The notes: generated by a model from the letters alone, not told the origin. Positions 5,395 through 62,944 are shown, numbered from the stretch's first letter. The stretch: 64,000 nt of DNA from Ylistrum balloti (GCF_031769215.1 NW_026782006.1:844070-908069), one strand, 5' to 3'. Made by a program: numbers and translations.

Positions 5395-8276
5395 TTTCTA
5401 TAAAAACATTCAGTCACTTGTGTTCAGTCATATATCCAACAACAAATGCCAGAGGAAATGGGGACCTGTTGTCGTATATTTATTAGTTCTCATGTTCTGA
5501 ATGGTATTGATGTAAGCAGCGATTTGAAACCGTCTCCTTTATGTGCCATTGACAGCGACAATTCACTATTCGACCAGTCGACGAAACCGTGTATTCTTCT
5601 GGCAAATTGATGGGACGCATTTTCCATCTAATTTGTTTCATATTCCTCCACTCAAAAAACTGTTGTCTAGACTCTGTCTTTAAAGGAAACAGACGTTTTT
5701 AGAAAACTCACAGAAATGCAGTTTTCAAAGACTGCTTGTGCAGAAGATAAAATCTTGAATACTTTTATATTTCCATATTATCAATTTCATCATGATATCT
5801 GTTAGATCTTTGTCCCTTTTCTCTTCTCAAAATCACTGTCAGAACAATTATGCACAACCAGGGAGTAAGACATTTTTTTATAAATACTAAAAGTGACAAC
5901 AATAAGAAAAATAGGGAAAATGACACAATAATTTTTTAAAACAGACTTAACCTTTATAATCCAAATATCTGCTGGTGTCGAACATAGATAATCCATCAAG
6001 TTCACAATGTACACAGAATCGATTCTGTAGAGGTTTGTTATGTTTCTGTATTGTGAAGCTCTTTTCAGTAGTTCACCGACGTAAATGTAAGATAAGAGTA
6101 CCAGCAAATTTAAAAGTGGACAGTGGATGCCATCTGGAAACAATGAAGTTAAAATTTGGCAGGCACACCTATAATCAAGTCTGTCGTCATCCCTGTATTT
6201 TATCAGGGAGATATCTTAGAAATTCCTAGAAATGAAATAACGGTAACCTCTTTAGAGCCATTATTCAAAATGGCTACAATTGTCAGTGTAGCTGGAAATG
6301 TACCATACTCATTTAAAACACATACAGAACAGGTTCATGATCTTTAAATCAGATCCTTTCATGGTTCTCCAGAGATGAACAGAGTAAGAAAAAATACTCT
6401 GGACAGACTAAGACATATACTCACAATTACAATATACTTTGGTCAAATGAAATAAACTGAATTCGAGTGCTTGTTACCTGATTGACAATATCAATCGGCC
6501 TGATTAAGTCCTTCAATTATTTTTCTCAAATTTCAATTTATAGATCTTGTCATTATGTATATTTCCATGTGATATAAGAAGTATTTTTTTCGATGATTGT
6601 GATCTTTAACCTGTTTACCATATAGAGAGCATGGTATTGCCTTGATTGACTGAACACATAGTAACTGTTAATTTAAGAATCATCCAAAATTTTAAGCTAC
6701 GAGAGCCTTCCATGAATTGGCCTAAATATTTGAACCCGTTAGGTTCATCATTCAGAATTAACATCTTGAAATGTAAGAACTTTTTTTATTATATTTCGTG
6801 TGTACAAAAGAACTAGGATTTCTTGATTATGAGGGATTGCCTATCTATACGTTATGCAATCTTTCCTAAGAAGAAATACTGTCTAACGTGCGACAATATT
6901 GCAATAATTTAAATTGCCTTTTAATGATAAGGATACGGACCTCCACTGTTAATATTTCTCGGGAATCCGTGTAAACCCAGATTTGATAGTACATTTTGTA
7001 TTTAGAATGGCAGTTCTCAGTTTTGACAAAGGCTCGGTTTAACAGCTAAACGAGCCCACAATAAAACGTTACATGGTTCCTGTGAAGCTTTTTGACAATC
7101 TTCAGCACAACTCTAAGCATTTCTTTAATAAGAACATTTGATATCTCCACTGTACATTACCATACCCCATTCCAAACAGAAAGAATACCTTCAGCTCTTG
7201 TTACGATAGCTTTCCAAGAAAGGTGGACGGTGGTACAAATATATGGTTGTGAACTATACTATTTTTCGTGAAATCAAAGAAGAAGTAAGAAGGCGAAATC
7301 TGGTTGACAACATCAGTTGAGTTTGAAGGCAAGACCGTATAACAGACTTTTGGCAAACCTTTGAAAACTAACTGTTCCCCTCTGTTGGTTGACTTATTTT
7401 TTATTTCATACGAGGCTGAATTTATCGAGGAACTTATCAAAACAGGCAACAAATACTTTGCAAAGTCGATCAGTTTCACTTTCAGAGATATCAAAGACAT
7501 CTTGTCTTTGAATCAGAAATTTATTGACCACGTCCATCGTATCAACCCACCAGAATTGGAAATCGAGGACACAACAGACTCTTCTACAATAGCTTTCTTA
7601 TCTCGATCTTTACCTACAATGAACCAACATGGACAGTTTGACATCAAACTGTATGATAAGCGTAATGATTTCAATTTCCCTCGAGTAAAATTTCCATTTC
7701 TGGATAGAAACATTCCTGCATCTAAACTATGGTGTACACATGTCGCAGTTGATTCGGCATGTTCCCATTATCAAGACGTTCGAGCAAGACGTTTTTACTG
7801 GCGGACAAACTCTCAACACATTGTTTCAAAAGATGCAGATTGATGGAAATAATGGGAAAGTTTTACGGTCGTCATAGTGATGTCAATGACAAATATTCTA
7901 TTTCCTTGTATGATATGAAGCTGGACGTGTTTGGATTGACCAAGATTTACATGGCGTGTGTCATCGATAAAGCAAAAGACCTTTACTCTTGCGGAACACC
8001 CTGTCTTATTTTCTTGTACTTTTTCAGAATCTCCGAGTATATCTTTCTTTTGTTCATAGCTTGCCCTAGTTTCATTGAATTTAAGATTGGTTTATGGTTA
8101 TGTTGACATGTTAGTCTTGATTCTTGAAGCAAACGACATCATTCGGGAGCACAAAGCATTCATTTTCCTAAATTTTATCCAACAAAAATCTATCTTTTAA
8201 AGTTCAAGTTGCTGAGCTATATAAACAACTAAAAACGAGACTCAATGAAGCATCCTTTGTTTTAATATAGAAACGA

Positions 8277-8429: not shown

Positions 8430-9458
8430 CTGAAAGGTAATTAAATATACATACATAGTCATTGAATAAACGGTTCTCATCATTCAGCTCTTTAATCGTT
8501 GTATGAATAGGCTATGCCAATTACACTATACTGTACCAATTAAACATTAACAAACAACTAGTCGTTTGGAAAACTTCAGTAGAAATTTCATTATGTGATA
8601 AATAACACTTGGTGTTCCAAAAGTCGCTCACTATCATATACTGCTATATATAATTATGCGATCACGACCATTAATAACAGGTAACATCGTGACAATGTTT
8701 TAACTGCTTGTTGACATTAATTTCAGCAAAGAATTTCTAGAAGATCAGAAGATTGCTGACATACACAGAGAACATGACAACTTTCCGATTTTTTAAAATT
8801 ACAAAATGAAGCTGAAATTATTGGGGTGATTTGAGAGGCAAACGGTAGCTACTCTCTAACCCATACCATGATATTTATATACATAGCTTTTTTGTGTAAA
8901 TATCATCTTTATACGATAGGATGTACATAAACATATAGGTAATGGTTAGGCTACTCTCTAACCTATTGTATTGAAATTTGTTCAGACACATATTATTGCT
9001 GCAGTACTCTCTGAACCATTAAATTCATCTCTTTTAACCACAACTTTCATTAGATAAATAAGAAGATAAAAAAGTAACGAGATTTGCACGCAGTTATAAA
9101 TCGCCTCTATGTTCCAGATTGAAAGCGAAATACAAGATAGTGCACATCGGCATCTATATCAAAAAACCATTTCACCCGATTCTAATTTTCTTAAATCTCC
9201 TAAGTTTAAATCCTTTAAGTATCACTATGAGTCATAGTCAATAGTACCTATAGATACAAATCATCAATACAAATTCAGGATTAGATACAGTAAAGACAGA
9301 AACTAACTGCATCATACAGCTGTTTTGTCCTTCTAGTCAGTGATGCTGAGAGTCCAGATTTTGGTGTAGTTTAATTCATTATTTGGCTACACTACTGTGT
9401 TTAATCTAAAACGTGTATCGAAACGTGCCATTGTTAAAGACATCTTCCCTATACATAC

Positions 9459-9592
9459 ATAATCATTTCCGTTCGTGCCGTTGATTTTCTGGAAGATGTT
9501 ACCGTCAGTGCTGCAGGCTAGGGTGTAGGCTGTCGTGTACTGGGAACGAGAATAGCCTTGGGTCATCACTCTGTAGATCCTAGTCAGGTTAC
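9459..9592 (-). CDS. Gene B exon: discoidin domain central part (G)NLTRIYRVMTQGYSRSQYTTAYTLACSTDGNIFQKINGTNGNDY
   Basis: Minus acceptor ..cgacAG (9593-9594). Phase-1 entry completes Gly of WLQIDL|G. Donor GTATGT (9458-9453). Exon break falls after 'GN', as in gene A. Confidence 0.78.
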
Positions 9593-11165
9593 CTGTCGTG
9601 GTAATCGTAAATAATTTCTCTTTTACACTTAAAGGTGTATTCTTTCGTGCCACATTTTAATTCATTCGACCAGTTTAGAATGTACACAACTACTTGAAAT
9701 CGACCTAAATGATCTCATATATGAAAATTATGGAATTTATGGAAATATGAGACTGGTGCACTTCAACATCTAGATTTTGACTTTTCTTTCGATCACTTTG
9801 GATTTTCCTCAGTCTTCAATCTTCAGTGATTAAATATGCGAGTTATAAACATCTCGGACAATGGGAGATACTGTTCGTCAATAGTAATCCTCTTTTACAA
9901 TATAATTACGAGGTGCAAGGGTATAGCATTTTACAGTCGAGGACATCTCCAATTCTGACCTGTAGTCAAAAGTATGAGTCTTGATTTTCACCCTCAAGAT
10001 ATAGTTTAGCTGCAAATCAATATATCTGTTTCATTTTTTTTAAACTGAGTCAATCATTGAATTTAACTTTGATAAAAGCAATTTGAACTTAAATATCAAG
10101 TTTATGTTATTAACAAAAAAACATATTTAATTGAGTGTTTCGCACTAATCATCAGACTTCGTTCGCATTATCCACAGGGAAACTAAGTCCAGAAAGGTTT
10201 TATGAAATGCTGCTAGAGTTCCTACACAAACACGTCTAGTATTGATATTAATAATCAAATACAGATATAACATATCAATTATTGCAAAGTCGAATACAGT
10301 AAATACAATGGAAATATAAACCACTTTGGATAAGAGGAAACGCGTGTCCAATTTAGGCGAAAACAAACATTCATGTTTTCAAATGGAATCAGCGGATCAG
10401 ATCATACATCTATTGAAAAATTCAATTTACTGTGATGAAATAACCTTAAAACAATGCAACGTTTGTAAAATATTGAACTGAGTTTTTCCTCCATGTAACT
10501 TTTTAATTAATCTTATTTGAATACTGGAACGGTTCAGAAAACGTCATTGAAATAATTCAATATTAAAAAATACGAAATTGATTGAATTTTCGGGTAAGTG
10601 CACCTCCCAATCTGTTTTTGGACAGTCATCTAAAGTAGGTGTAGACTTATGTAGGAATAAGATATATTATCAACCAGATTATTTGAAGAAGGGAAACGTA
10701 CACGAGACACATAAGTGATAGTATCTTTTAAAACAAATAATAAGTCAGGTAAAGTATGCCAAAGAATGAATCATAGGAATCATATAGCTGCGAAGTCCTT
10801 CTGGGATTCGTCGGTGATGCTAAGGGCCTACATTTTGAAGCCTATGCGGCGACGGAGAAAACTACAAACTGATCGAAATATTAAAATCTAGGTCGGTGCT
10901 CCCTAATGCAATAAATTTCATAATTTCCATTGAACTGTCTGAATATTTCAGAAGAATTTTAAGTACACCTGTTAACGTCGTCAGGTGGCGCGCTGTGGTA
11001 AAACATTCGCTTCTCACTTAGCCGTCCGGGGTACGACAGGGAGTCACCAGCACGATTGTGTGGGTTTCCACACAAGACCATATCCACAGATAGAATTAGG
11101 TCAAGCCACATAAGAAAAACGTTCTTTTTTGTGTGTATACAGTACCATGTTCTTTCTCTACTTAC

Positions 11166-12087: not shown

Positions 12088-12293
12088 CTGAAATATAGAT
12101 TCAATTTACTTATCGTTGAAAAAACAGCACGTAGTAACCACATCTTTAATTAACCATATTATTATACATGTATAAATTACCAAACACATAAATTGAAGAT
12201 TTCTATTTTATCTGATAACAAAATAATTTTACAGAAATAATCATTTTCCACCACAATATATTGTCATAACAGTAAAGACAAGATACATTATAC

Positions 12294-12483
12294 CTAATGT
12301 TTCCATCCTGAAAACAGCATCGGCGTATTTATTATGCGAGTCTAATGCACGGATTGTGAATGAGTAGCTATTGGTTTCATCAGGAACCTCGCCCACCACG
12401 TGACCGGTTGTGCCGTTCAGCTTGATACCTGGTGGAAGATCTCCGGCGACAAGCGCGAAGGTGATGGTACCGCCTTCTGGATC
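12294..12483 (-). CDS. Gene B exon: dystroglycan-type cadherin-like / putative Ig (CADG, He_PIG) domain core (DPEGGTITFALVAGDLPPGIKLNGTTGHVVGEVPDETNSYSFTIRALDSHNKYADAVFRMETL)
   Basis: Only one open frame. Phase 0 in, phase 1 out (190 nt), matching the phase-1 EGF exon. Motif F.DPeG..lTF.l..G.LP.Gl.Ln..TG.l.G.P...d.gsY.f.i.A.D. Donor GTATAA is weak. Confidence 0.65.
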
Positions 12484-12767
12484 CTCAAAGCGAATTCATA
12501 TTTGTGGTATTTGTAAGTTGCTTCTAACGGTTACATTGAAAATAATACAATTCTACGACCACGGTATGGGATCGCTAAACATATATCTGTGTTTACATTG
12601 AATGCTTCACATATTCATGATAGTCGGATGTTATTTTAGTAGAAGACATAAATTTTTTAGAAATCTAGCAATAAAATCTAGTCGAGGAATTCCGACCAGC
12701 TGTAGTATCTAGTGTACTAACGTCACATTCACTTTTGTGTACTTTCAGTGTATTGTATAAGTAGTAC

Positions 12768-25040: not shown

Positions 25041-25264
25041 AATGATCAACAAGACCTTAAAAATGGTTTCAGCTGTAACATGTAAACAGCATAGGTGGCT
25101 GGAGAGATGTACCTGTTGCTTTTGTTGTAAGAAACACTTGGGGTTAGCGGGTGATGTAGAAAAGTATGTCTTGTCCTTGATTTCCGATTCTGGTGGGTTT
25201 ATTCGATAGACATGGTCAATAAATGTCTTACTACTCAATGAGACATCATCAAGATGATTGGGGG

Positions 25265-33274: not shown

Positions 33275-33769
33275 CTGATATACAAACAAGTTGTTTTTAT
33301 CTGTGTTACAATACTTCACTGGCTGTATCTTCTATAATATTAGTGGTATTTCAGCCACATCTCAGGTTTTTGGACATGGAGAAGATAAATGTTTCCTACG
33401 TGTGGAGTAACACTTCACATACCTGTAGTATGCTGCTAGGCTACAGAAAACTTCTCTAGGACAATTGAGCCTAGTAAACCAGAGGCCCAATGTGATGCAT
33501 TGAAATCAATAATGACATCTGTTACATACATAAATGGCATCGAATTATTCTGGAAATATCATCACTTGCAATAAAATTGTCTCATTACCACAATAGTATA
33601 CCTAGATCTCAATCAGATATTCTTTTTATCACACAATGTGCCCAATTCATTTTTGTGATTCTTCACACAACAATGATCAGTATCCAATGAAACTTACCAG
33701 CATCTACCAACTACAACAATGTCAAGTGCTTGTACACTATTTCTATATTTACTAGCTATAAATTTCTTC

Positions 33770-34875
33770 AGCTTCTAATAACTACAAACTACGTCAGCTT
33801 CTAATAACTACAAACTACGTCAGCTTCTAATAACAACAAACTACGTCAACTACAAACTACGTCAGCTTCTAATAACAACAAACTACGTCAACTACAAACT
33901 ACGTCAGCTTCTAATAACAACAAACTACGTCAACTACAAACTACGTCAGCTTCTTATAACAACAAACTACTTCAGCTTCTAATAACAACAAACTACGTCA
34001 ACTACAAACTACGTCAGCTTCTAATAACTACAAACTACTCAACCTCTATCAGGTACAGAGTACTTCAATTTCTTCAAACTACAAACCATTCCAGCCTTTT
34101 CAGGCTAGAATCTACTCCAACCTCTTCCAACTACAAACTACTCCAACCTCCTCCAACTACAAACTACTCAAACCTCTTCCAACTACAAACTACTCAAACC
34201 TCCCCAACTACAAACTACTCAAACCTTCCCAACTACAATCTAGTCAAACCACTTCCAACTACAAACTACTCAAACCACTTCCAACTACAAACTAGTCAAA
34301 CCACTTCCAACTACAAACTACTCAAACCACTTCCAACTACAAACTAGTCAAACCACTTCCAACTACAAACTACTCAAACCTTCCCAACTACAAACTACTC
34401 AAACCTTCCCAACTACAAACTACTCAAACCACTTCCAACTACAAACTACTCCAACCTCCCCAACTACAAACTACTCCAACCTCTTCCAACTACAAACTAC
34501 TCAAACCTCCCCAACTACAAACTACTCCAACCTCCCCAACTACAAACTACTCCAACCTCCCCAACTACAAACTACTCCAACCTCCCCAACTACAAACTAG
34601 TCAAACCACTTCCAACTACAAACTACTCAAACCTTCCCAACTACAAACTAGTCAAACCTCTTCCAACTACAAACTGGTCAAACCACTTCCAACTACAAAC
34701 TACTCAAACCACTTCCAACTACAAACTACTCAAACCACTTCCAACTACAAACTAGTCAAACCACTTCCAACTACAAACTACTCAAACCTTCCCAACTACA
34801 AACTAGTCAAACCTTCCCAACTACAAACTAGTCAAACCTCCCCAGTTCTTCAACCTCTTCCACCTGCCAACTACT
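33770..34875. repeat. Satellite K: compound 26-bp unit (CTACAAACTACTCAAACCACTTCCAA; 5' part ACTACGTCAGCTTCTAATAACAACAA), ~40 copies, + strand almost devoid of G
   Basis: Direct reading. Period 26 (34276 -> 34302). Confidence 0.9.
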
Positions 34876-37599: not shown

Positions 37600-38400
37600 A
37601 AAAGACATATCCTCACTGCCAACTTGTGACAATGTCATCCATGCCAATGATTTCTGTATTTTACAACTCGGCACCAATTGTTAGGGCCAATTATCTAACT
37701 CCACTTCAGACTCCAGATATAAATAACCTAATGATAATAATAATGGGCCAATCTCTGTTTTACCCATTTTATCTAAGATACTGGAAAGGCATGTACATAC
37801 CCATTTTATCTAAGATACTGGAAAGGCATGTACATACCCATTTTATCTAAGATACTGGAAAGGCATGTACAAACACAAGCTCATTGTCTCATCAAAGGCT
37901 TATACATTCCTATCTTCCCATTCAAGGTAGAATGAAGTTTTACAACTCATGTATTTTTCCCCATTTTATTTATTGCTGTACTGTATGGTCTGGATGTGAT
38001 GCAAATCATATGGGTAAATTATATAAAGCCCAGAAACAGGCAGAAAGAGTTATACTTAATGTGCCATATGATACACCTTCCTCTGATATGTCTTCTGTTT
38101 TAAAATGGATTCCAACTGAAAAATATTTTAAATTCAAGAGAATATGTTTGTTTTACAAATGTATTCATGGATTGGTGCCAGATTACTTAAGCCACAATAT
38201 CAAACTTGCTAATGATGAACACAGAAGATGTATCAGGTTCTCCGTGGCAAATAATGTTATTGTTCCTAAGCACAGAACTACATTTTACTCAAAACAATTT
38301 TTTATATCTGGTGCTCAGGACTGGAATAGTCTATCCAGTCTGTTAAAAGACATTCAAAATTTTAATTCTTTTAGAGACCAACTAGTTCATTACTTTTGAA
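37600..38400 (+). mobile_element. Non-LTR (LINE) retrotransposon remnant: N-proximal RT fragment (..PILSKILERHV..) fused to the conserved ORF2 C-terminal domain; 5'-truncated and internally deleted
   Basis: 171-aa ORF 37884-38399 shows the widespread LINE ORF2 C-terminal pattern (FPHFIYCCTVWSGC........L..AQKQAERVI.......S..M...LKWIP.EKYFKFKRICLFYKCIHGLVPDYL......A.....R.........PK.RT.FYSKQFFISGAQDWNSL). Upstream ..NYLTPL..PILSKILERHV matches the RT 'NYRPISLL...SKIlEk' region. (ATT)n microsatellite follows at 38745-38790. Confidence 0.7.
37740..37870. repeat. 37-bp tandem triplication (CCCATTTTATCTAAGATACTGGAAAGGCATGTACATA) inside the LINE RT fragment
   Basis: Direct reading. Duplicates the PILSKILERHVH coding segment. 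Confidence 0.85.
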
Positions 38401-48059: not shown

Positions 48060-49475
48060 AGCCTATGTATGAAATTGAAATTTGTCAAATCCAACATGGC
48101 AACCTTAAGTCATTTTGTTATTCAATCAGTCTTTCAATTAATGATGCATAACCAGTATGTATATGAGAGGCCTCTATCAAACAAGGTATTCTCAAGAAAT
48201 AGCGATAATAAACTTTTTCAGATCTGTAGTAACATTGAAATTGTTTACAACATTAGGACCCCAGGGAATCTTAATGTAAAATCTTAGTAAAATCCGACAA
48301 TAACACACAAAAACTGTCAAAATTCAAGACTGATGCATGTTGGCAATTTATTTGCATTAGTTCCCAAATTTGCCCTGCCCAATGAAAGATTCAGGGTAGT
48401 TCATCTATGAAATATCAGAAAAATCCATTCATTGTTTCTCAAGAAATAGGATGGTTTAAAGACAAGCAAATGAACCACAGACCCCAGATGAAGGACTCTT
48501 TGAACAGCTGTCCAATTGATGATAAGAAGCTAACAAGAGATCCCAGAGGGATCTTGGCGCCCACCATTTGAGGATCTGTTTTCAGTTCTTGAAGATTTGT
48601 TTTTTTTTTTTGTTTGTTTGTTACAGGTGTTGTAAATGTTCATGAACTGGTCTTCACTGAATGTACTCAATGATGGCACAAGATATTTTTATTAAGCACC
48701 TATTAGCAAATATCATTTGAAAAAGATCCTAAAGTATTATTAGATAGCAGTCAGTTACAGGTGGATAATGGACAATATGCTTGTGCTGTATTACTGTCGA
48801 CATCCAAGATGGCTGTCTGTGGGCCACCTTGATTTCAAATCGGTCCAAAAAAGGTACAATGCACAACTAGGGACAAAGGGAAACCAATATCTATAAAATA
48901 TCAGAAGGATCCATCCAGGACTTCCTCAGATATAGCAGTAACAAGATTTTACTCTCAAAATTCAAGATGGCTGCCTGTCAGCCATATTGATTTCGGATCA
49001 GTCCAAAAAGGTATAATGCACAACTTGGAACCAAAGGGAACCTGCATATGAAATTTGAGAAAGATCCATCCAGTACTTTCCAAGAAATAGCAGTAACAAA
49101 CTTATACTTCCAAAATCCAAGATGGCCACCTGTCGGCCATCTTGAATTCGAATCAGTCCAAAAAAGGTACAATGCACAACTAGGGACAAAGGGGAAACTG
49201 CATATGAAATTTGAGAAAGATCCATCCAGTACTTTTCCAGAAATAGCGGTAACAAACTTTTACTTCCAAAATCCAAGATGGCCACCTGTCTGCCATCTTC
49301 AATGGGAATCAGTTCAAAAAAGGTACAATGCACAACTAGGGACCAAGGGGAACCTGCATATGAAATTTGAGAAAGATCCATCCAGTACTTTTCCAGAAAT
49401 AGCGGTAACAAGAATTGTTTACGGACGGACGGACCGGACGCCTAGACGGACGGACGACGGACCACGGACGCAGGG
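48060..49475. repeat. Repeat Q: ~156-bp unit (..CAAGATGGCCACCTGTCGGCCATCTTGA..TCAGTCCAAAAAAGGTACAATGCACAACTAGGGACAAAGG..CATATGAAATTTGAGAAAGATCCATCCAGTACTTTCCAAGAAATAGCAGTAACAA..). ~4 near-identical copies (48806-49430) preceded by ~3 strongly diverged copies (48060-48560); array ends in a (GGAC)n-like tract 49418-49470
   Basis: Unit starts 48806, 48963, 49117, 49275. Diverged copies share CTCAAGAAATAG(C/G) and CATCTATGAAATATCAGAAAAATCCAT blocks. Confidence 0.8.
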
Positions 49476-49658
49476 TGATTTTAATTAACCCACCATCTAT
49501 TAGATGGTGGGCTAAAAATGTGTTAATATGACTTTTTCTCTGTGTCAGTTAAAACTGTAAACTGAGGTCAGTATACTGGAAGATTTTCCTTACATTTACA
49601 TGTCAAGTGTACAGACATGTGTACAAAGAAGAATAAATATAAACATTGTTTTACATAC

Positions 49659-50595
49659 CAATACACTTAGAGATATCAGGTCTTCTGTAGACTTTCCACC
49701 TCTATTGGCTGATGATAAAGGCCTTGCAGATTGCTGAGATTGGCCAAAACAATGCGATAATCCTTCAGTCACCGGAGAGGAGACTCTGTCCAATAAGCAT
49801 TCATCAGCTCCTGAGAATCTATTACATATGGAAGTCTGTCTTGAAGATCTCCCATGCTGTGGAGAAGGGGGAGGTGGTGCTGCGGGTGTAAAAGCCAACC
49901 TAGACTTTCGAGCACGTTGGGTACATTGTGTTGCAGGTGTAAAAGCCATGGCAGACTTTCGATGGGGGGGAGGTGGGGGAGGTGGTGTTGCGGATGTAAA
50001 AGCCACGGCAGACTTTGGAGGTGGGGGAATTGGTGTTGCAGGTGTAAAAGCCATGGCAGACTTTGGAGGTGGGGGAGGTGGGGGAGGTGGGGGAGGTGAT
50101 GTTGCGGATGTAAAAGCTACGGCAGACTTCGGAGGTGGGGGAGGTGGTGTTCCGGGTGTAAATGCCATGGCAGTCTTTGGAGGTGGGGGAGGTGGTGCTG
50201 CGGGTGTAAAAGCTAACGCAGACTTTGGAGGTGGGGGAATTGGTGTTGCAGGTGTAAAAGCCATGGCAGACTTTCGATGGGGGGGAATGGGTGGTCCGGA
50301 TGTAAAAGTCTTGGCAGATTTTGGAGGTGGGGGAATTGGTGTTGCAGGTGTAAAAGCCATGGCAGACTTTGGAGGTGGGGGAGGTGGTGTTGCGGATGTA
50401 AAAGCCACGGCAGACTTTGGAGGTGGGGGAGGTGGTGCTGCTGATGTAAAAGCCATGGCAGACTTCGGAGGTGGGGGAGGTGGTGCTGTGGGTGTAAAAG
50501 CCATGGCAGACTTTTGACGGGGGGAAATTGGTGGTCCGGATGTAAAATCCTTGGCAGACTTTGGAGGTGGGGAAATTGGTGTTGCAGATAAATAC
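49659..50595 (-). CDS. Candidate large exon of a proline-rich protein: ~12 x 60-bp coding repeats ([K/R]SA[M/V]AFT[P/S]A[T/A]PPPPPP) followed by unique tail ..SPQHGRSSRQTSICNRFSGADECLLDRVSSPVTEGLSHCFGQSQQSARPLSSANRGGKSTEDLISLSVL
   Basis: One continuous open frame of 937 nt on minus strand. Bounded by acceptor ctattgcAG (50596-50597) and donor GTATGT (49658-49653). GC-rich relative to flanks. Repeat varies at synonymous/conservative positions. Confidence 0.5.
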
Positions 50596-50639
50596 CTGCA
50601 ATAGAGAAACAACAATATATTTCTAAAAATACATACAGG

Positions 50640-53600
50640 AGTTTTCATTTCCAAATGCTGTATCTGGTCTGATCTAGTTTGACTGTTCCAATGCTGTATC
50701 TGATCTGATCTAGTTTGACTGTCCCAATGCTGTCCCAATGCTGTATCTGATCTGATCTAGTTTGACTGTTCCAATGCTGTATCTGATCTGATCTAGTTTG
50801 ACTGTCCCAATGCTGTATCTGATCTGATCTAGTTTGACTGTCCCAATGCTGTATCTGATCTGATCTAATTTGACTGTTCCAATGCTGTATCTGATCTGAT
50901 CTAGTTTCACTGTTCCAATGCTGTATCTGATCTAGTTTCACTGTTCCAATGCTGTATCTGATCTGATCTAGTTTCACTGTTCCAATGCTGTATCTGATCT
51001 GATCTAGTTTGACTGTTCCAATGCTGTATCTGATCTGATCTAGTTTGACTGTTCCAATGCTGTATCTGATCTAGTTTGACTGTTCCAATGTTGTATCTGA
51101 TCTAGTTTGACTGTTCCAATACTGTATCTGATCTGATCTAGTTTCACTATTTCAATGCTGTATCTGATCTGATCTAGTTTGACTGTTCCAATGCTGTATC
51201 TGTTCTGATCTAGTTTTACTGTTCCAATGCTGTATCTGATCTGATCTAGTTTGACTGTACCAATGTTGTATCAGATTTAATGTAGTTTGACTGTTCCAAT
51301 GCTGTATCTGATCTGATCTAGTTTGACTTTTCCAATGCTGTATCTGATCTGATCTAGTTTGACTTTTCCAATGCTGTATCTGATCTGATTTAGTTTGACT
51401 GTTCCAATACTGTATCTGATCTTATTTAGATTCACTGTTCCAATGCTGTATCTGTTCTGATCTAGTTTGACTGTTCCAATGTTGTATCTGATCTAGTTTG
51501 ACTGTCCCAATGCTGTATCTGTTCTGATCTAGTTTGACTGTTCCAACGTTGTATCTGATCTAGTTTGACTGTCCCAATGCTGTATCTGATCTGATCTAGT
51601 TTGACTGTTCCAATGCTGTATCTGATCTGATCTAGTTTGACTGTTCCAATGCTGTATCTGATCTGATCTAGTTTGACTGTTCCAATGCTGTATCTGATCT
51701 GATCTAGTTTGACTGTTCCAATGCTGTATCTGATCTAGTTTGACTGTTCCAATGCTGTATCTGATCTGATCTAGTTTGACTGTTCCAATGCTGTATCTGA
51801 TCTAGTTTGACTGTTCCAATGCTGTATCTGATCTGATCTAGTTTGACTGTTCCAATGCTGTATCTGATCTGATCTAGTTTGACTGTTCCAAATCTGATTG
51901 TATCTGTTCTGATCTAGTTTGACTGTTCCAATGCTGTATTTGATCTGATCTAGTTTGTTCCAATGCTGTATCTGATCTGATCTAGTTTGACTGTTCCAAC
52001 ATTGTATCTGATCTAGTTTGACTGTCCCATTGCTGTATCTGATCTGATCTAGTTTGACTGTCCAAATGCTGTATCTGATCTGATCTAGTTTGACTGTTCC
52101 AATGCTGTATCTGATCTGATCTAGTTTGACTGTTCCAATGCTGTATCTGATCTGATCTAGTTTGACTGTTCAAACGTTGTATCTGATCTAGTTTGACTGT
52201 TCCAATGTTGTATCAGATCTAGTTTGACTGTTCCAATGTTGTATCTGATCTAGTTTGACTGTACCAATGTTGTATCAGATTTGATCTAGTTTGACTGTTC
52301 CAATGCTGTATCTGTTCTGATCTAGTTTGACTGTTCCAATGTTGTATCAGATCTAGTTTGACTGTCCCAATGCTGTATCTGTTCTAGTTTGACTGTTCCA
52401 ATGCTGTATCTGTTTGACTGTTCCAATGTATGCTGTATCTGTATCTAGTTTGACTGTTCCAATGCTGCATCTGTTCTGATCTATGCTGTATCTGATCTGA
52501 TCTAGTTTGACTGTACCAATGTTGTATCAGATTTGATCTAGTTTGACTGTTCCAATGCTGTATCTGTTCTGATCTAGTTTGAGTGTTCCAATGCTGTATC
52601 TGATCTAGTTTGACTGTTCCAATGCTGTATCTGATCTGATCTAGTTTGACTGTTCCAATGCTGTATCTGTTCTGATCTAGTTTGACTGTTCCAATGCTGT
52701 ATCTGATCTAGTTTGACTGTACCAATGTTGTATCAGATTTGATCTAGTTTGACTGTTCCAATGCTGTATCTGATCTAGTTTGATTGTCCCAATGCTGTAT
52801 CTGATCTGATCTAGTTTGACTCCAATGCTGTATCTGATCTAGTTTGACTGTTCCAATGCTGTATCTGATCTGATCTAGTTTGACTGTTCCCAATCTGATC
52901 TAGTTTCACTGTCCCAATGCTGTATCTGATCTAGTTTGACTGTCCCAATGCTGTATCTGATCTGATCTAGTTTAACTGTTCCAATGTTGTATCTGATCTG
53001 ATCTAGTTTGACTGTCCCAATGCTGTATCTGATCTAGTTTAACTGTTCCAATGTTGTATCTGATCTGATCTAGTTTGACTGTCCCAATGCTGTATCTGAT
53101 CTAGTTTGACTGTTCCAATGCTGTATCTGATCTGATCTGTATCTGATCTGATCTAGTGTATCTGATCTAGTTTGACTTTTCCAATGCTGTATCTGATCTG
53201 ATTTAGTTTGACTGTTCCAATACTGTATCTGATCTTATTTAGATTCACTGTTCCAATGCTGTATCTGTTCTGATCTAGTTTGACTGTTCCAATGCTGTAT
53301 TTGATCTGATCTAGTTTGTTCCAATGCTGTATCTGATCTGATCTAGTTTGACTGTTCCAACATTGTATCTGATCTGATGTAGTTTGACTGTTCCAATGCT
53401 GTATCTGATCTAGTTTGACTGTTCCAATGTTGTATCTGATCTAGTTTGACTGTTCCAATACTGTATCTGATCTAGTTTGACTGTTCCAATGCTGTATCTG
53501 ATCTAGTTTCACTGTTCCAAAGCTGTATCTGATCTGATCTAGTTTGACTGTTCCAATGCTGTATCTGATCTGATCTAGTTTGACTGTTCCAATGCTGTAT

Positions 53601-55520: not shown

Positions 55521-55859
55521 TATATATCTAGATACAGATTGTTGCCATAATTGTATCTATCTAGGCTTCTTCAGCAGAATTTTTTAATATTAGAAATACT
55601 AAAAGCAATAACAATTATTCCTGTAATTTTGTACGATGAGGAGGTGTTTTGACTTATGCTGTTGCTATAACTGTGTTCCTATAGAACATTGCACTGTCTT
55701 CACTGAAATCTCTTCCAAAAAGTCTATAATACTTTGGCTGCACTTTGATAAGGTTTCACAAGTGGCTAATCTGAAACTATATTTACTAACATATTTTGGT
55801 TATTTGAGTCATTCCTTTAAGACCACATGTATCTGACAATGGTTATATACTGATACAGA

Positions 55860-58800
55860 TTAACTATACACCTGTTTCACATCCATATGCTGTAACAGAT
55901 TAACATAATGCTAGATCCCTAGACAGTAATCCAAATTATATCTTTGGTAATAATACACTAGTTAATACAGATTAACAAGCTGTATAACTGGTACATCCTG
56001 TTATTTTGTAACACAGATTAATACTAGGATCCCTAGGGGTAATAATGCTGTGGTTATATCTGTAAACAGATTAACATACTGGTTATATCATTAACATACT
56101 AGATCCCTAGGGGTAATAATACACTCCTGGTTATATCTGTAACAGATTAACATACTAGATCCCTAGGGGTAATAATACACTCCAGGTTATATCTGTAAAC
56201 AGATTAACATACTAGATCCCTAGGGGTAATAATACACTCCTGGTTATATCTGTAACCAGTAATAATAACACTCCTGGTTATATCTAAACAGAACATACTA
56301 GACAATAACACTCCTGGTTAACTGTGTACAACTAGATCCCTAGGGGTAATAATACACTCCTGGTTATATCTGTAAACAGATTAACATACTAGATCCCTAG
56401 GGGTAATAATACACTCCTGGTTATATCTGTAACAGATTAACATACTAGATCCCTAGGGGTAATAATACACTCCTGGTTATATCTGTAACAGATTAACATA
56501 CTAGATCCCTAGGGGTAATAATACACTCCTGGTTATATCTGTAAACAGATTAACATACTAGATCCCTAGGGGTAATAATACACTCCTGGTTATATCTGTA
56601 ACAGATAGATACTAGATCCCTAGGGGTAATAATACACTCCTGGTTATATCTGTAAACAGATTAACATACTAGATCCCTAGGGGTAATAATACACTCCTGG
56701 TTATATCTGTAACAGATTAACATACTAGATCCCTAGGGGTAATAATACACTCCTGGTTATATCTGTAAACAGATTAAATATTACTGGTTATACTAGTAAA
56801 CAGATCCCTAGAGGGGTAATAATACACTCCTGGTTATATCTGTAAACAGATTAACATATAGATCCCTAGGGGTAATAATACACTCCTGGTTATATCTGTA
56901 ACAGATAGATACTAGATCCCTAGGGGTAATAATACACTCCTGGTTATATCTGTAACAGATAGATACTAGATCCCTAGGGGTAATAATACACTCCTGGTTA
57001 TATCTGTAACAGATTAACATACTAGATCCCTAGGGGTAATAATACACTCCTGGTTATATCTGTAAACAGATTAACATACTAGATCCCTAGGGGTAATAAT
57101 ACACTCCTGGTTATATCTGTAAACAGATTAACATACTAGATCCCTAGGGGTAATAATACACTCCTGGTTATATCTGTAAACAGATTAACATACTAGATCC
57201 CTAGGGGTAATAATACACTCCTGGTTATATCTGTAAACAGATTAACATACTAGATCCCTAGGGGTAATAATACACTCCTGGTTATATCTGTAACAGATAG
57301 ATACTAGATCCCTAGGGGTAATAATACACTCCTGGTTATATCTGTAACAGATTAACATACTAGATCCCTAGGGGTAATAATACACTCCTGGTTATATCTG
57401 TAACAGATTAACATACTAGATCCCTAGGGGTAATAATACACTCCTGGTTATATCTGTAAACAGATTAACATAGATACTAGATCCCTAGGGGTAATAATAC
57501 ACTCCTGGTTATATCTGTAAACAGATTAACATACTAGATCCCTAGGGGTAATAATACACTCCTGGTTATATCTGTAAACAGATTAACATACTAGATCCCT
57601 AGGGGTAATAATACACTCCTGGTTATATCTGTAACAGATTAACATACTAGATCCCTAGGGGTAATAATACACTCCTGGTTATATCTGGAACAGTAGGATA
57701 CTAGATCCCTAGGGGTAATAATACACTCCTGGTTATATCTGTAAACAGATTAACATACTAGATCCCTAGGGGTAATAATACACTCCTGGTTATATCTGTA
57801 AACAGATTAACATACTAGATCCCTAGGGGTAATAATACACTCCTGGTTATATCTGTAACAGATTAACATACTAGATCCCTAGGGGTAATAATACACTCCA
57901 GGTTATATCTGTAAACAGATTAACATACTAGATCCCTAGGGGTAATAATACACTCCAGATTATATCTGTAACAGATTAACATACTAGATCCCTAGGGGTA
58001 ATAATACACTCCTGGTTATATCTGTAACAATAGGATACTAGATCCCTAGGGGTAATAATACACTCCTGGTTATATCTGTAAACAGATTAACATACTAGAT
58101 CCCTAGGGGTAATAATACACTCCTGGTTATATCTGTAACAGATTAACATACTAGATCCCTAGGGGTAATAATACACTCCTGGTTATATCTGTAAACAGAT
58201 TAACATACTAGATCCCTAGGGGTAATAATACACTCCTGGTTATATCTGTAACAGATTAACATACTAGATCCCTAGGGGTAATAATACACTCCTGGTTATA
58301 TCTGTAAACAGATTAACATACTAGATCCCTAGGGGTAATAATACACTCCTGGTTATATCTGTAAACAGATTAACATACTAGATCCCTAGGGGTAATAATA
58401 CACTCCTGGTTATATCTGGAACAATAGGATACTAGATCCCTAGGGGTAATAATACACTCCTGGTTATATCTGTAAACAGATTAACATAATAGATCCCTAG
58501 GGGTAATAATACACTCCTGGTTATATCTGTAACAGATTAACATACTAGATCCCTAGGGGTAATAATACACTCCTGTTATATATAACATACTAGATCCCTA
58601 GGGGTAATAATACACTCCTGGTTATATCTGTAACAGATTAACATACTAGATCCCTAGGGGTAATAATACACTCCTGGTTATATCTGTAAACAGATTAACA
58701 TACTAGATCCCTAGGGGTAATAATACACTCCTGGTTATATCTGTAAACAGATTAACATACTAGATCCCTAGGGGTAATAATACACTCCTGGTTATATCTG

Positions 58801-60090
58801 TAAACAGATTAACATACTAGATCCCTAGGGGTAATAATACACTCCTGGTTATATCTGTAACAGATTAACATACTAGATCCCTAGGGGTAATAATACACTC
58901 CTGGTTATATCTGTAAACAGATTAACATACTAGATCCCTAGGGGTAATAATACACTCCTGGTTATATCTGTAACAGATTAACATACTAGATCCCTAGGGG
59001 TAATAATACACTCCTGGTTATATCTGTAAACAGATTAACATACTAGATCCCTAGGGGTAATAATACACTCCTGGTTATATCTGTAAACAGATTAACATAC
59101 TAGATCCCTAGGGGTAATAATACACTCCTGGTTATATCTGTAAACAGATTAACATACTAGATCCCTAGGGGTAATAATACACTCCTGGTTATATCTGTAA
59201 ACAGATTAACATACTAGATCCCTAGGGGTAATAATACACTCCTGGTTATATCTGTAACAGATTAACATACTAGATCCCTAGGGGTAATAATACACTCCTG
59301 GTTATATCTGTAAACAGATTAACATACTAGATCCCTAGGGGTAATAATACACTCCTGGTTATATCTGTAAACAGATTAACATAATAGATCCCTAGGGGTA
59401 ATAATACACTCCTGGTTATATCTGTAAACAGATCTGTAATAAACACTCCTGGTTATATCTGTAACAGATTAACATACTAGATCCCTAGGGGTAATAATAC
59501 ACTCCTGGTTATATCTGTAACAGATAGATACTAGATCCCTAGGGGTAATAATACACTCCTGGTTATATCTGTAAACAGATTAACATACTAGATCCCTAGG
59601 GGTAATAATACACTCCTGGTTATATCTGTAAACAGATTAACATACTAGATCCCTAGGGGTAATAATACACTCCTGGTTATATCTGTAAACAGATTAACAT
59701 ACTAGATCCCTAGGGGTAATAATACACTCCTGGTTATATCTGTAAACAGATTAACATACTAGATCCCTAGGGGTAATAATACACTCCTGGTTATATCTGT
59801 AAACAGATTAACATACTAGATCCCTAGGGGTAATAATACACTCCTGGTTATATCTGTAACAGATTAACATACTAGATCCCTAGGGGTAATAATACACTCC
59901 TGGTTATATCTGTAACAGATTAACATACTAGATCCCTAGGGGTAATAATACACTCCTGGTTATATCTGTAACAGATAGATACTAGATCCCTAGGGGTAAT
60001 AATACACTCCTGGTTATATCTGTGACAGATAGATACTAGATCCCTAGGGGTAATAATACACTCCTGGTTATATCTGTGACAGATAAACAT
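55860..60090. repeat. Satellite T: 57-bp unit (CAGATTAACATACTAGATCCCTAGGGGTAATAATACACTCCTGGTTATATCTGTAAA), ~73 copies; 54-bp variant with ACAGATAGATACTAG; degenerate copies 55860-56090
   Basis: Period 57 (56341 -> 56398). Unit contains CCCTAGGG palindrome. Confidence 0.97.
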
Positions 60091-60239
60091 AATCCTAGAG
60101 AGTAATTATTCAATTTACATTATACCAAGATTAGTTACAGCACCTATCATTTTACCCTCATTAAGAAAAAGTATGGAAGAGAGGAAATGAATGACACATA
60201 TAAGAGAGATTTCGAATCTGTATCATTAGTCCATCATTT

Positions 60240-62485
60240 TTATACATTGATGTGAACTTACCCTGCTATACAGTGTTCCTGCTGATACATTGATGTGATT
60301 CCTGCTGATACATCCTGGTTATATCTGTGAATTACCCTGCTATACAGTGTTCCTGCTGATACATTGATGTGAACTTACCCTGCTATACAGTGTTCCTGCT
60401 GATACATGGATGTGAACTTACCCTGCTATACAGTGTTCCTGCTGATACATTGATGTGAACTTACCCTGCTATACAGTGTTCCTGCTGATACATTGATGTG
60501 AACTTACCCTGCTATACAGTGTTCCTGCTGATACATTGATGTGAACTTACCCTGCTATACAGTGTTCCTGCTGATACATTGATGTGAACTTACCCTGCTA
60601 TACAGTGTTCCTGCTGATACATTGATGTGAACTTACCCTGCTATACAGTGTTCCTGCTGATACATGGATGTGAACTTACCCTGCTATACAGTGTTCCTGC
60701 TGATACATGGATGTGAACTTACCCTGCTATACAGTGTTCCTGCTGATACATGGATGTGAACTTACCCTGCTATACAGTGTTCCTGCTGATACATTGATGT
60801 GAACTTACCCTGCTATACAGTGTTCCTGCTGATACATTGATGTGAACTTACCCTGCTATACAGTGTTCCTGCTGATACATGGATGTGAACTTACCCTGCT
60901 ATACAGTGTTCCTGCTGATACATGGATGTGAACTTACCCTGCTATACAGTGTTCCTGCTGATACATTGATGTGAACTTACCCTGCTATACAGTGTTCCTG
61001 CTGATACTGATGTGAACTTACCCTGCTATACAGTGTTCCTGCTGATACATTGATGTGAACTTACCCTGCTATACAGTGTTCCTGCTGATACATTGATGTG
61101 AACTTACCCTGCTATACAGTGTTCCTGCTGATACATGGATGTGAACTTACCCTGCTATACAGTGTTCCTGCTGATACATGGATGTGAACTTACCCTGCTA
61201 TACAGTGTTCCTGCTGATACATGGATGTGAACTTACCCTGCTATACAGTGTTCCTGCTGATACATGGATGTGACTTACCCTGCTATACAGTGTTCCTGCT
61301 GATACATGGATGTGAACTTACCCTGCTATACAGTGTTCCTGCTGATACATGGATGTGAACTTACCCTGCTATACAGTGTTCCTGCTGATACATGGATGTG
61401 AACTTACCCTGCTATACAGTGTTCCTGCTGATACATGGATGTGAACTTACCCTGCTATACAGTGTTCCTGCTGATACATGGATGTGAACTTACCCTGCTA
61501 TACAGTGTTCCTGCTGATACATTGATGTGAACTTACCCTGCTATACAGTGTTCCTGCTGATACATTGATGTGAACTTACCCTGCTATACAGTGTTCCTGC
61601 TGATACATTGATGTGAACTTACCCTGCTATACAGTGTTCCTGCTGATACATTGATGTGAACTTACCCTGCTATACAGTGTTCCTGCTGATACATTGATGT
61701 GAACTTACCCTGCTATACAGTGTTCCTGCTGATACATGGATGTGAACTTACCCTGCTATACAGTGTTCCTGCTGATACATTGATGTGAACTTACCCTGCT
61801 ATACAGTGTTCCTGCTGATACATGGATGTGAACTTACCCTGCTATACAGTGTTCCTGCTGATACATTGATGTGAACTTACCCTGCTATACAGTGTTCCTG
61901 CTGATACATGGATGTGAACTTACCCTGCTATACAGTGTTCCTGCTGATACATTGATGTGAACTTACCCTGCTATACAGTGTTCCTGCTGATACATTGATG
62001 TGAACTTACCCTGCTATACAGTGTTCCTGCTGATACATGGATGTGAACTTACCCTGCTATACAGTGTTCCTGCTGATACATGGATGTGAACTTACCCTGC
62101 TATACAGTGTTCCTGCTGATACATTGATGTGAACTTACCCTGCTATACAGTGTTCCTGCTGATACATTGATGTGAACTTACCCTGCTATACAGTGTTCCT
62201 GCTGATACATGGATGTGAACTTACCCTGCTATACAGTGTTCCTGCTGATACATGGATGTGAACTTACCCTGCTATACAGTGTTCCTGCTGATACATGGAT
62301 GTGAACTTACCCTGCTATACAGTGTTCCTGCTGATACATGGATGTGAACTTACCCTGCTATACAGTGTTCCTGCTGATACATGGATGTGAACTTACCCTG
62401 CTATACAGTGTTCCTGCTGATACATTGATGTGAACTTACCCTGCTATACAGTGTTCCTGCTGATACATGGATGTGAACTTACCAT
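60240..62485. repeat. Satellite U: 43-bp unit (CCTGCTATACAGTGTTCCTGCTGATACATTGATGTGAACTTAC; ATTGATG/ATGGATG variants), ~52 copies
   Basis: Period 43 (60371 -> 60414). Confidence 0.97.
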
Positions 62486-62944
62486 TTTAGACATTGTTTT
62501 CTTTGCTATGACATCCTCATTTCTGAATCAAAATAAAGCTCAGCATTAAACATGATAAATTATCCTGTTTGACCACTCATTTAAACTCTTGTGTTTGTTG
62601 TATATAGCACATAATCTGGTTCATTTTCTTTCAGCAATACAAGGGTTAAGCATAACTTTGACCTTTGAATTAAAATGACTTTGATATAGTCATACAACCA
62701 TGTGACTCCAGAATCAAGTATCTACTTTCACAGACTTAGTTTGACATTTGACCTCAATAAAACCTTTGGGAGGAACTTTTGATCTCAGTGTTACATGCCT
62801 ATACTGTTCAGTAGACAACACAGGCTATTATATTGTTCTGTATTATGCTCATCCTTCAAACTAGAATAACTAAAACCAATAAATACACAATACGCATTAC
62901 TTGTAACTTCAGTATGAATGTATTTTAACATTAAGTACCCATAC

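Follow-up and report, generated by a model that had tools for sequence, protein, structure and literature searches.

A probable templated insertion of neighbouring satellite sequence in the edge unit of a tandem array

The first full unit of a 43-bp tandem array, array U, carries an insert of which one half is copied from array U itself and the other half from the neighbouring array T. Both arrays lie in a stretch of 64,000 nucleotides (the window), and the whole analysis was carried out on one haplotype from one assembly. We attribute the chimeric unit to a single composite, microhomology-mediated templated insertion into the first full U monomer, and we estimate the probability of this explanation at roughly 0.6. 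The chimeric unit is most likely an ordinary scar of error-prone repair or of replication template switching, and most likely has no function. Judged from their sequences, the two arrays between which the fragment passed are not homologous.

The chimeric unit and the arrays around it

The string CATCCTGGTTATATCTGTGA was found once in the window, at 60311-60330. Within it, the 18-mer TCCTGGTTATATCTGTGA (60313-60330) has its only other exact matches at 60008 and 60062, in the last two units of T. The chance expectation for exact matches to any T 18-mer outside T is about 0.0012. The T match inside U is therefore not due to chance, and the T core fragment that the original prediction had seen embedded in U at 60311-60330 is confirmed, with its last 18 nt identical to T. 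The core of array T, the 16-mer TCCTGGTTATATCTGT, is present in 64 to about 67 copies in T and once in U. The base that defines the variant is the G at the 17th position of TCCTGGTTATATCTGTGA; in T, the string TGTGA is confined to the two units nearest to U, every other T unit reading TGTAA. As U itself, and not T, may be the source of this G, the patch is not assignable to one particular donor T unit.

Table 1 Positions of the arrays, of their edges and of the parts of the chimeric unit, counted from the first nucleotide of the window.
Feature	Position	Strand	Description and basis
Decayed T-like copies, graded left edge of T	55840-56089	+	Direct reading
Array T	56090-60079	+	Units of 54/56/57 bp; TRF, core counts and unit slicing
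Candidate donor TCCTGGTTATATCTGTGA, penultimate T unit, G variant	60008-60025	+	Exact 18-mer match to 60313-60330
Candidate donor TCCTGGTTATATCTGTGA, last T unit	60062-60079	+	251 bp upstream of the patch
Decayed partial T unit, right edge	60080-60112	+	In register with the T consensus, CAGATAAACATA..CCTAGAGAGTAATTATTCA
Unique spacer	60113-60241	.	Alignment with T and U at chance level on both strands
Array U	60242-62483	+	43-bp unit, 51 units, register TTACCC..GTGAAC; TRF
Single aberrant U monomer, 74 bp	60258-60331	+	Canonical 43 bp + 32-nt insert - 1 nt
Insert segment 1, TTCCTGCTGATACAT, 15 nt	60299-60313	+	Identical to U 60276-60290, 23 nt upstream
Insert segment 2, CCTGGTTATATCTGTGA, 17 nt	60314-60330	+	T sequence, direct orientation, 235-305 bp upstream

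It had been proposed that the second U unit is interrupted by the T fragment. The disruption is real, and it is described more simply as an insert within the first full unit of U (60258-60331), the only unit of its kind among the 51. This unit could be reconstructed exactly as canonical U sequence up to GATGTGA (60258-60298), followed by the 32-nt insert and by an A, the C of GTGAAC being missing. All of the insert is U or T sequence, and TGTGA flanks it on either side. When the U-compatible ATACAT is counted, the T-like stretch reads ATACA-TCCTGGTTATATCTGTGA and agrees with the terminal unit of T at 23 of 24 nt. The net effect is that ATACA-TTGA-TGTGA of U has been exchanged for ATACA-(C)TCCTGGTTATATC-TGTGA of T. 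The final TGTGA of the second segment also belongs to the U consensus and thus constitutes a junction microhomology. The three joins differ in this respect, with TGTGA (5 nt) at the passage from T to U, a single T (1 nt) or an imperfect ATACA(C)T at the passage from U to T, and none at GATGTGA/TTCC. At the two T/U junctions, the sequence shared by the arrays amounts to 5-6 nt only (ATACA/T and TGTGA). Other parsings of the aberrant unit are a truncated unit of 23 bp plus one of 51 bp, or a 20-bp deletion, a 12-for-3-nt replacement and a 1-nt deletion, the latter amounting to three events.

The insert is absent from the U units that follow (50 of 50). The chimeric unit is thus single copy and was never amplified in tandem, which rules out a new composite or higher-order repeat unit. 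A scan of 16 arrays for foreign k-mers returned it as the sole clear patch derived from an unrelated array; between the other arrays no patch was found, save in the related pair K/L and for a 15-mer in array S2 that resembles array P and derives from slippage. The chimeric string has no match in metagenome contigs, and the unit strings of T and U have none in metagenome or prokaryotic genome contigs. Exact-protein look-ups with open reading frames from T and U, from their vicinity and from other parts of the window returned no independent copy of the junction, and a literature search with the repeat strings gave nothing relevant.

The edges of the two arrays are of different kinds. On the left side of T, 13-mers of the array start at 55890, and the first 16 units agree with the consensus at a mean of 82-90%, compared to 95-99% inside the array. 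On the right side, canonical T stops at about 60079-60085 and TRF ends the array at 60091, in agreement with the end at about 60090 given by the original prediction. The copy of the string said to close T at 60061-60075 exists as well, one base away, at 60062-60079. Beyond it, the decayed partial unit (60080-60112) scores 23 against the T consensus, a value reached by 13 of 1000 shuffles. Since this partial unit extends to about 60112, the truly unique sequence between the arrays measures about 128 bp (60113-60241) and not about 150 bp as had been stated. No T-like or U-like sequence was detected in this spacer on either strand, and it matches none of the other spacers. Inside T, the unit at 59395-59487 measures 93 bp because of an internal partial duplication (…CTGTAAACAGATCTGTAATAAACACTCCTGG…); it represents a further small scar of slippage or template switching, confined in this case to one array.

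Canonical U begins at 60242-60243, a small correction to the start at 60240 proposed earlier. Almost all of its units (48 of 51) correspond to one of two single-base variants, ACATGGATG in 25 units and ACATTGATG in 23, and two units carry deletions of 1-2 nt. In contrast to the graded edges of T, those of U are abrupt on both sides, and a search of the flanks for decayed U copies found none above chance. The array is bracketed by ATTTT and by TTTTATACATTG / TTTTAGACATTG (TTTTA(T/G)ACATTG), at 60233-60250 and 62484-62498. This similarity of the flanks is weak, as 89 of 2000 shuffles score as well, and the bracketing might represent a target-site-like duplication, an integration microhomology or chance.

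Similarity between arrays T and U

The relation between the two arrays was examined by local alignment of consensus dimers on both strands, in comparison with shuffled sequences and with all 210 array pairs, under three scoring schemes; the terminal T variant was also used in one of the two softer schemes. T and U gave a local score of 12, which ranks 143 of the 210 pairs and is equalled by 761 of 1000 shuffles. Under the two softer schemes, 47-59% of the shuffles were as good and the T/U pair ranked 78 and 57 of 210. The loose motif CCTG(C/G)T(A/T)TA(C/T)A, which had been described as common to both arrays, matches 51 times in U and not once in T. The U unit goes back to an old internal duplication, CCTGCT(G)ATACA(G/T)TG (6 of 5000 shuffles), and for this reason CCTG...ATA motifs catch the eye everywhere. 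With a similarity at chance level under the three schemes and a motif absent from T, the common origin that had been suggested for T and U is not supported. The original prediction had itself named the alignment of the two consensus units as the comparison by which a common origin would fall if the similarity were no better than chance, and this is the result obtained.

A common origin of this sort is real for another pair in the window. Arrays K (26/42-bp units) and L (26-bp unit), at 33768-34840, are the sole truly related neighbouring arrays and merge via a transition zone at about 33999-34043. Their alignment score is 39, compared to a mean of 12.9 and to 12 for T/U.

Origin of the insert

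Both parts of the insert have an identical template close by, of 17-18 nt in T (60008 and 60062) and of 15 nt in U. A composite insert with templates within about 300 bp, microhomology at the T/U joins, a 1-nt deletion and a position at the array edge together point to a footprint of microhomology-primed synthesis. Templated insertions attributed to POLQ measure 2-35 bp, are copied from adjacent or distant templates, and begin and end at microhomology (PMC7454005). The two segments described here (15 and 17 nt, with 1 nt, a C, deleted) lie inside this size range (PMC7454005). Templated insertions of the MMBIR type measure at least 10 bp and are copied from nearby templates flanked by microhomology, several templates being possible (PMC8421209). 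What stands against a templated insertion is the first join, GATGTGA/TTCC, which is without microhomology, the join into T, with its single nucleotide or imperfect match, and the alternative parsing as three events.

The insert could have arisen by polymerase-theta-type end joining of a break in U, or by an MMBIR/FoSTeS-like replication template switch; TMEJ and a replicative template switch would leave the same footprint when only the sequence is considered. The events may be pictured as a break in the first U monomer, the ends of which would be resected so that the end of T is exposed on the left 3' tail. The right 3' end (...TTCACA-3') would then find TGTGA in the last T unit and anneal there; after copying about a dozen bases of T, it would dissociate and rejoin. 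The join into T would lie at ATACA/T and the join back to U within TGTGA, and the 15-nt re-copy of U would represent a second round of the same synthesis process. The repair pathway, the direction of synthesis and the donor T unit are those that we infer. The event would have taken place at the edge of the array, where homogenisation should be weakest, and its product would never have been amplified. Monomers at array edges are known to be more variable and are often truncated (PMC11610590, PMC11663013), and their escape from homogenisation (PMC11610590, PMC11663013) would allow such a scar to persist, yet without amplification.

The copied tract ends at the centre of a near-palindrome of T, TATCTGTGACAGATA (60071-60085). 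Dyad symmetry was not enriched as a general property of the repeat units, nor hairpins as a cause of breakage, with array O alone giving P=0.01, and the folding of 60230-60375 gave z = -0.06.

A variant of the main explanation, which we consider unlikely, is that the U/U/T filler is the end-joining scar left at the integration junction of a pre-formed U array that arrived as a block, for instance by eccDNA reintegration or by another microhomology-mediated insertion. The abrupt edges of U and its flanks free of decayed copies, unlike the graded T, indicate that U may have come in this way. The extreme homogeneity of the array and its bracketing by ATTTT and TTTTA(T/G)ACATTG go in the same direction, and reintegration of eccDNA through microhomology has been proposed for the spread of satellites (PMC11610590, PMC11663013). 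However, the flank similarity is equalled by 89 of 2000 shuffles, and the exact boundary between U and the spacer is not the site of the patch, which lies 57 bp inside U. An allele or a sister species with an empty site reading CATCATTTTAGACATTG would fit a block integration of U. A homologous exchange, by gene conversion or unequal crossing-over between two arrays that descend from a common ancestral repeat, appears quite improbable to us. The strings TCCTG.T.ATA and TGTGA-like strings are present in both units (9 of 11 in the alignment), and the patch replaces the corresponding part of the second half-unit of U. Nevertheless, the T/U similarity does not exceed chance under any of the three schemes and is of middle rank among the 210 pairs, far from the score of the truly related K/L pair (39 against 12), and the motif said to be shared is missing from T. 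The identity at the junctions, 5-6 nt, is far below what homologous recombination needs. Gene conversion between homologous repeats was rejected as a candidate since donor and acceptor are not homologous and the tract has no extended flanking identity, with 5-6 nt on each side. The exchange between neighbours that had been suggested thus holds insofar as T sequence has moved into an edge unit of U, but these 5-6 nt do not give it the look of homologous recombination or gene conversion.

Very improbable, in our estimation, is the possibility that an older T flank has decayed and left the T-like 17-mer as a relic, around which U has expanded. Decayed T copies do exist beyond both edges of T, and one of those at the left edge, TACATCCTG, is chimera-like. 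The fragment in U is nevertheless identical to present-day T at 18 of 18 positions, while the adjacent decayed unit at 60080-60112 is far more diverged; the intervening 128 bp show no T similarity, the spacing calculated from the coordinates is out of phase with the T period, and canonical U would need to have expanded on both sides of the fragment. We also attach very little probability to an artefact of assembly or polishing by which bases of T would have ended up in U. The highly repetitive nature of the region could favour such an error, but the artefact is structurally unlikely. A mis-join would be expected to give an abrupt T/U boundary, while a 17-nt patch with U on both sides is seen. 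The patch is separated from T by 128 bp of unique spacer and is accompanied by a clean 15-nt re-copy of U and by a 1-nt deletion, and the surrounding k-mers are unique and should assemble unambiguously.

The surrounding window and known systems

In character, the window resembles animal nuclear DNA. Tandem arrays, some 22 different ones with units of 26-156 bp, make up about 39 kb of its 64 kb (62%), and between the arrays lie unique spacers and a few exon-like fragments. The arrays measure 0.1-4.9 kb each, and mutually unrelated arrays are crowded side by side within the 64-kb window in a dense cluster. A comparison of the inter-array spacers revealed no common sequence among them, which rules out that the arrays are the cargo of copies of one mobile element or transposon family. 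Rfam and tRNA scans of the window returned zero matches.

Several other features of the window were observed. An exon-like open frame at 12244-12495(-) matches the He_PIG putative Ig domain with an E value of 5.7e-10, and another at 9390-9656(-) gives a weak F5/8 type C (discoidin) match (E 4.6e-4) that lies below the Pfam cut-off; the two frames point to a genuine gene on the minus strand, between arrays A and B. Array S (49966-50589, with an ORF at 49596-50738 on the minus strand) has a 48-bp unit of 16 codons and long open frames in either direction; the plus-strand frame reads GGGGG..VKAMADF, and the minus-strand frame, of 380 aa, reads PPPPPPKSAMAFTPA. These frames could belong to a coding minisatellite or could be an effect of composition. 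The 156-bp unit of array R (48802-49411) contains the palindrome-like GATGGCCACCTGTCGGCCATC and is also open on both strands; its plus-strand frame has no Pfam match above the curated cut-offs. In array S2, the 15-mer TATCTGTATCTAGTT at 52436-52450 is the core of array P, located 7 kb away. As it lies within a TGTATC slippage run, it looks like a convergence by deletion or slippage and not like a transfer. A stretch of 74 bp occurs twice in inverted orientation, at 7515-7588 and 25155-25228, with 85% identity, one copy sitting in a decayed ORF with a KLYDKRNDFNFP motif; the pair is probably a fragment of a dispersed mobile element. Adjoining array N, an ORF of 171 aa at 37884-38399(+) has its sole relatives in two short contigs (88% and 68% identity) and no Pfam match, and presumably resembles the C-terminal tail of a non-LTR retrotransposon protein.

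As a mutational scar, the feature is ordinary and belongs to a known kind. It provides one case, resolved to the base, of a templated and microhomology-associated insertion between two unrelated neighbouring arrays, and taken alone it matters little. It illustrates that scars of this kind are retained at the edges of arrays, the interiors remaining homogeneous. Should many such patches turn up in a genome-wide census, they could serve to date array expansions, to reveal the repair pathway that shapes satellite DNA in this organism, and to test whether chimeric junction units seed new satellites. The string ACATCCTGGTTATATCTGTGAATTACCC could be searched genome-wide in the same manner; a single occurrence would indicate a private scar, and many occurrences at U edges a transition element or a mobile U cassette. 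There is a small chance that the patch is a snapshot of the seeding of a satellite monomer, the locus acting as a satellite 'nursery', or in a variant of this idea the integration scar of a mobile pre-formed U. If the nursery were real, repeated break repair or template switching between neighbouring arrays would produce chimeric units, some of which would be amplified into new families.

The chimeric unit shares with the insertions described for POLQ/TMEJ a short insert (15 + 17 nt), a nearby template, more than one templated segment and a small deletion (PMC7454005). The microhomology that marks the beginning and end of copying in those insertions (PMC7454005) is seen here in part, with TGTGA at one join, a single T or an imperfect match at another and none at the third. 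The template, about 250 bp away, falls into the 'distant' class (>100 bp) of that study (PMC7454005). The unit likewise resembles MMB-TI in the length of the insertion (at least 10 bp), the nearby template, the use of several templates and, in part, the flanking microhomology (PMC8421209). The signature searched in that work was an inverted copy within 100 bp, unlike the direct copy at 235-305 bp found here (PMC8421209). In its position as first full unit of the array, the aberrant monomer recalls the degeneration of array edges (PMC11610590, PMC11663013). Unlike in plain edge degeneration, this edge unit is not merely diverged, since it carries identifiable foreign sequence.

By analogy, the closest described objects appear to be chimeric transition elements between neighbouring satellites. 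Chimeric junctions of this type were reportedly described by Mravinac and Plohl in 2007. In Tribolium madens, TRANS_2 is a 124-bp element in which truncated subunits from two satellites are combined and a 6-nt motif is duplicated at the break (PMC13081366). Like TRANS_2, the unit described here contains pieces of two adjacent satellites only and a short duplicated motif, TTCAAT in the former and TGTGA in the latter (PMC13081366). TRANS_2 is a conserved and recurrent boundary element found at direct contacts between satellites (PMC13081366), whereas in our case the T piece is embedded in U, is separated from its donor by unique spacer and was seen once in this 64-kb window.
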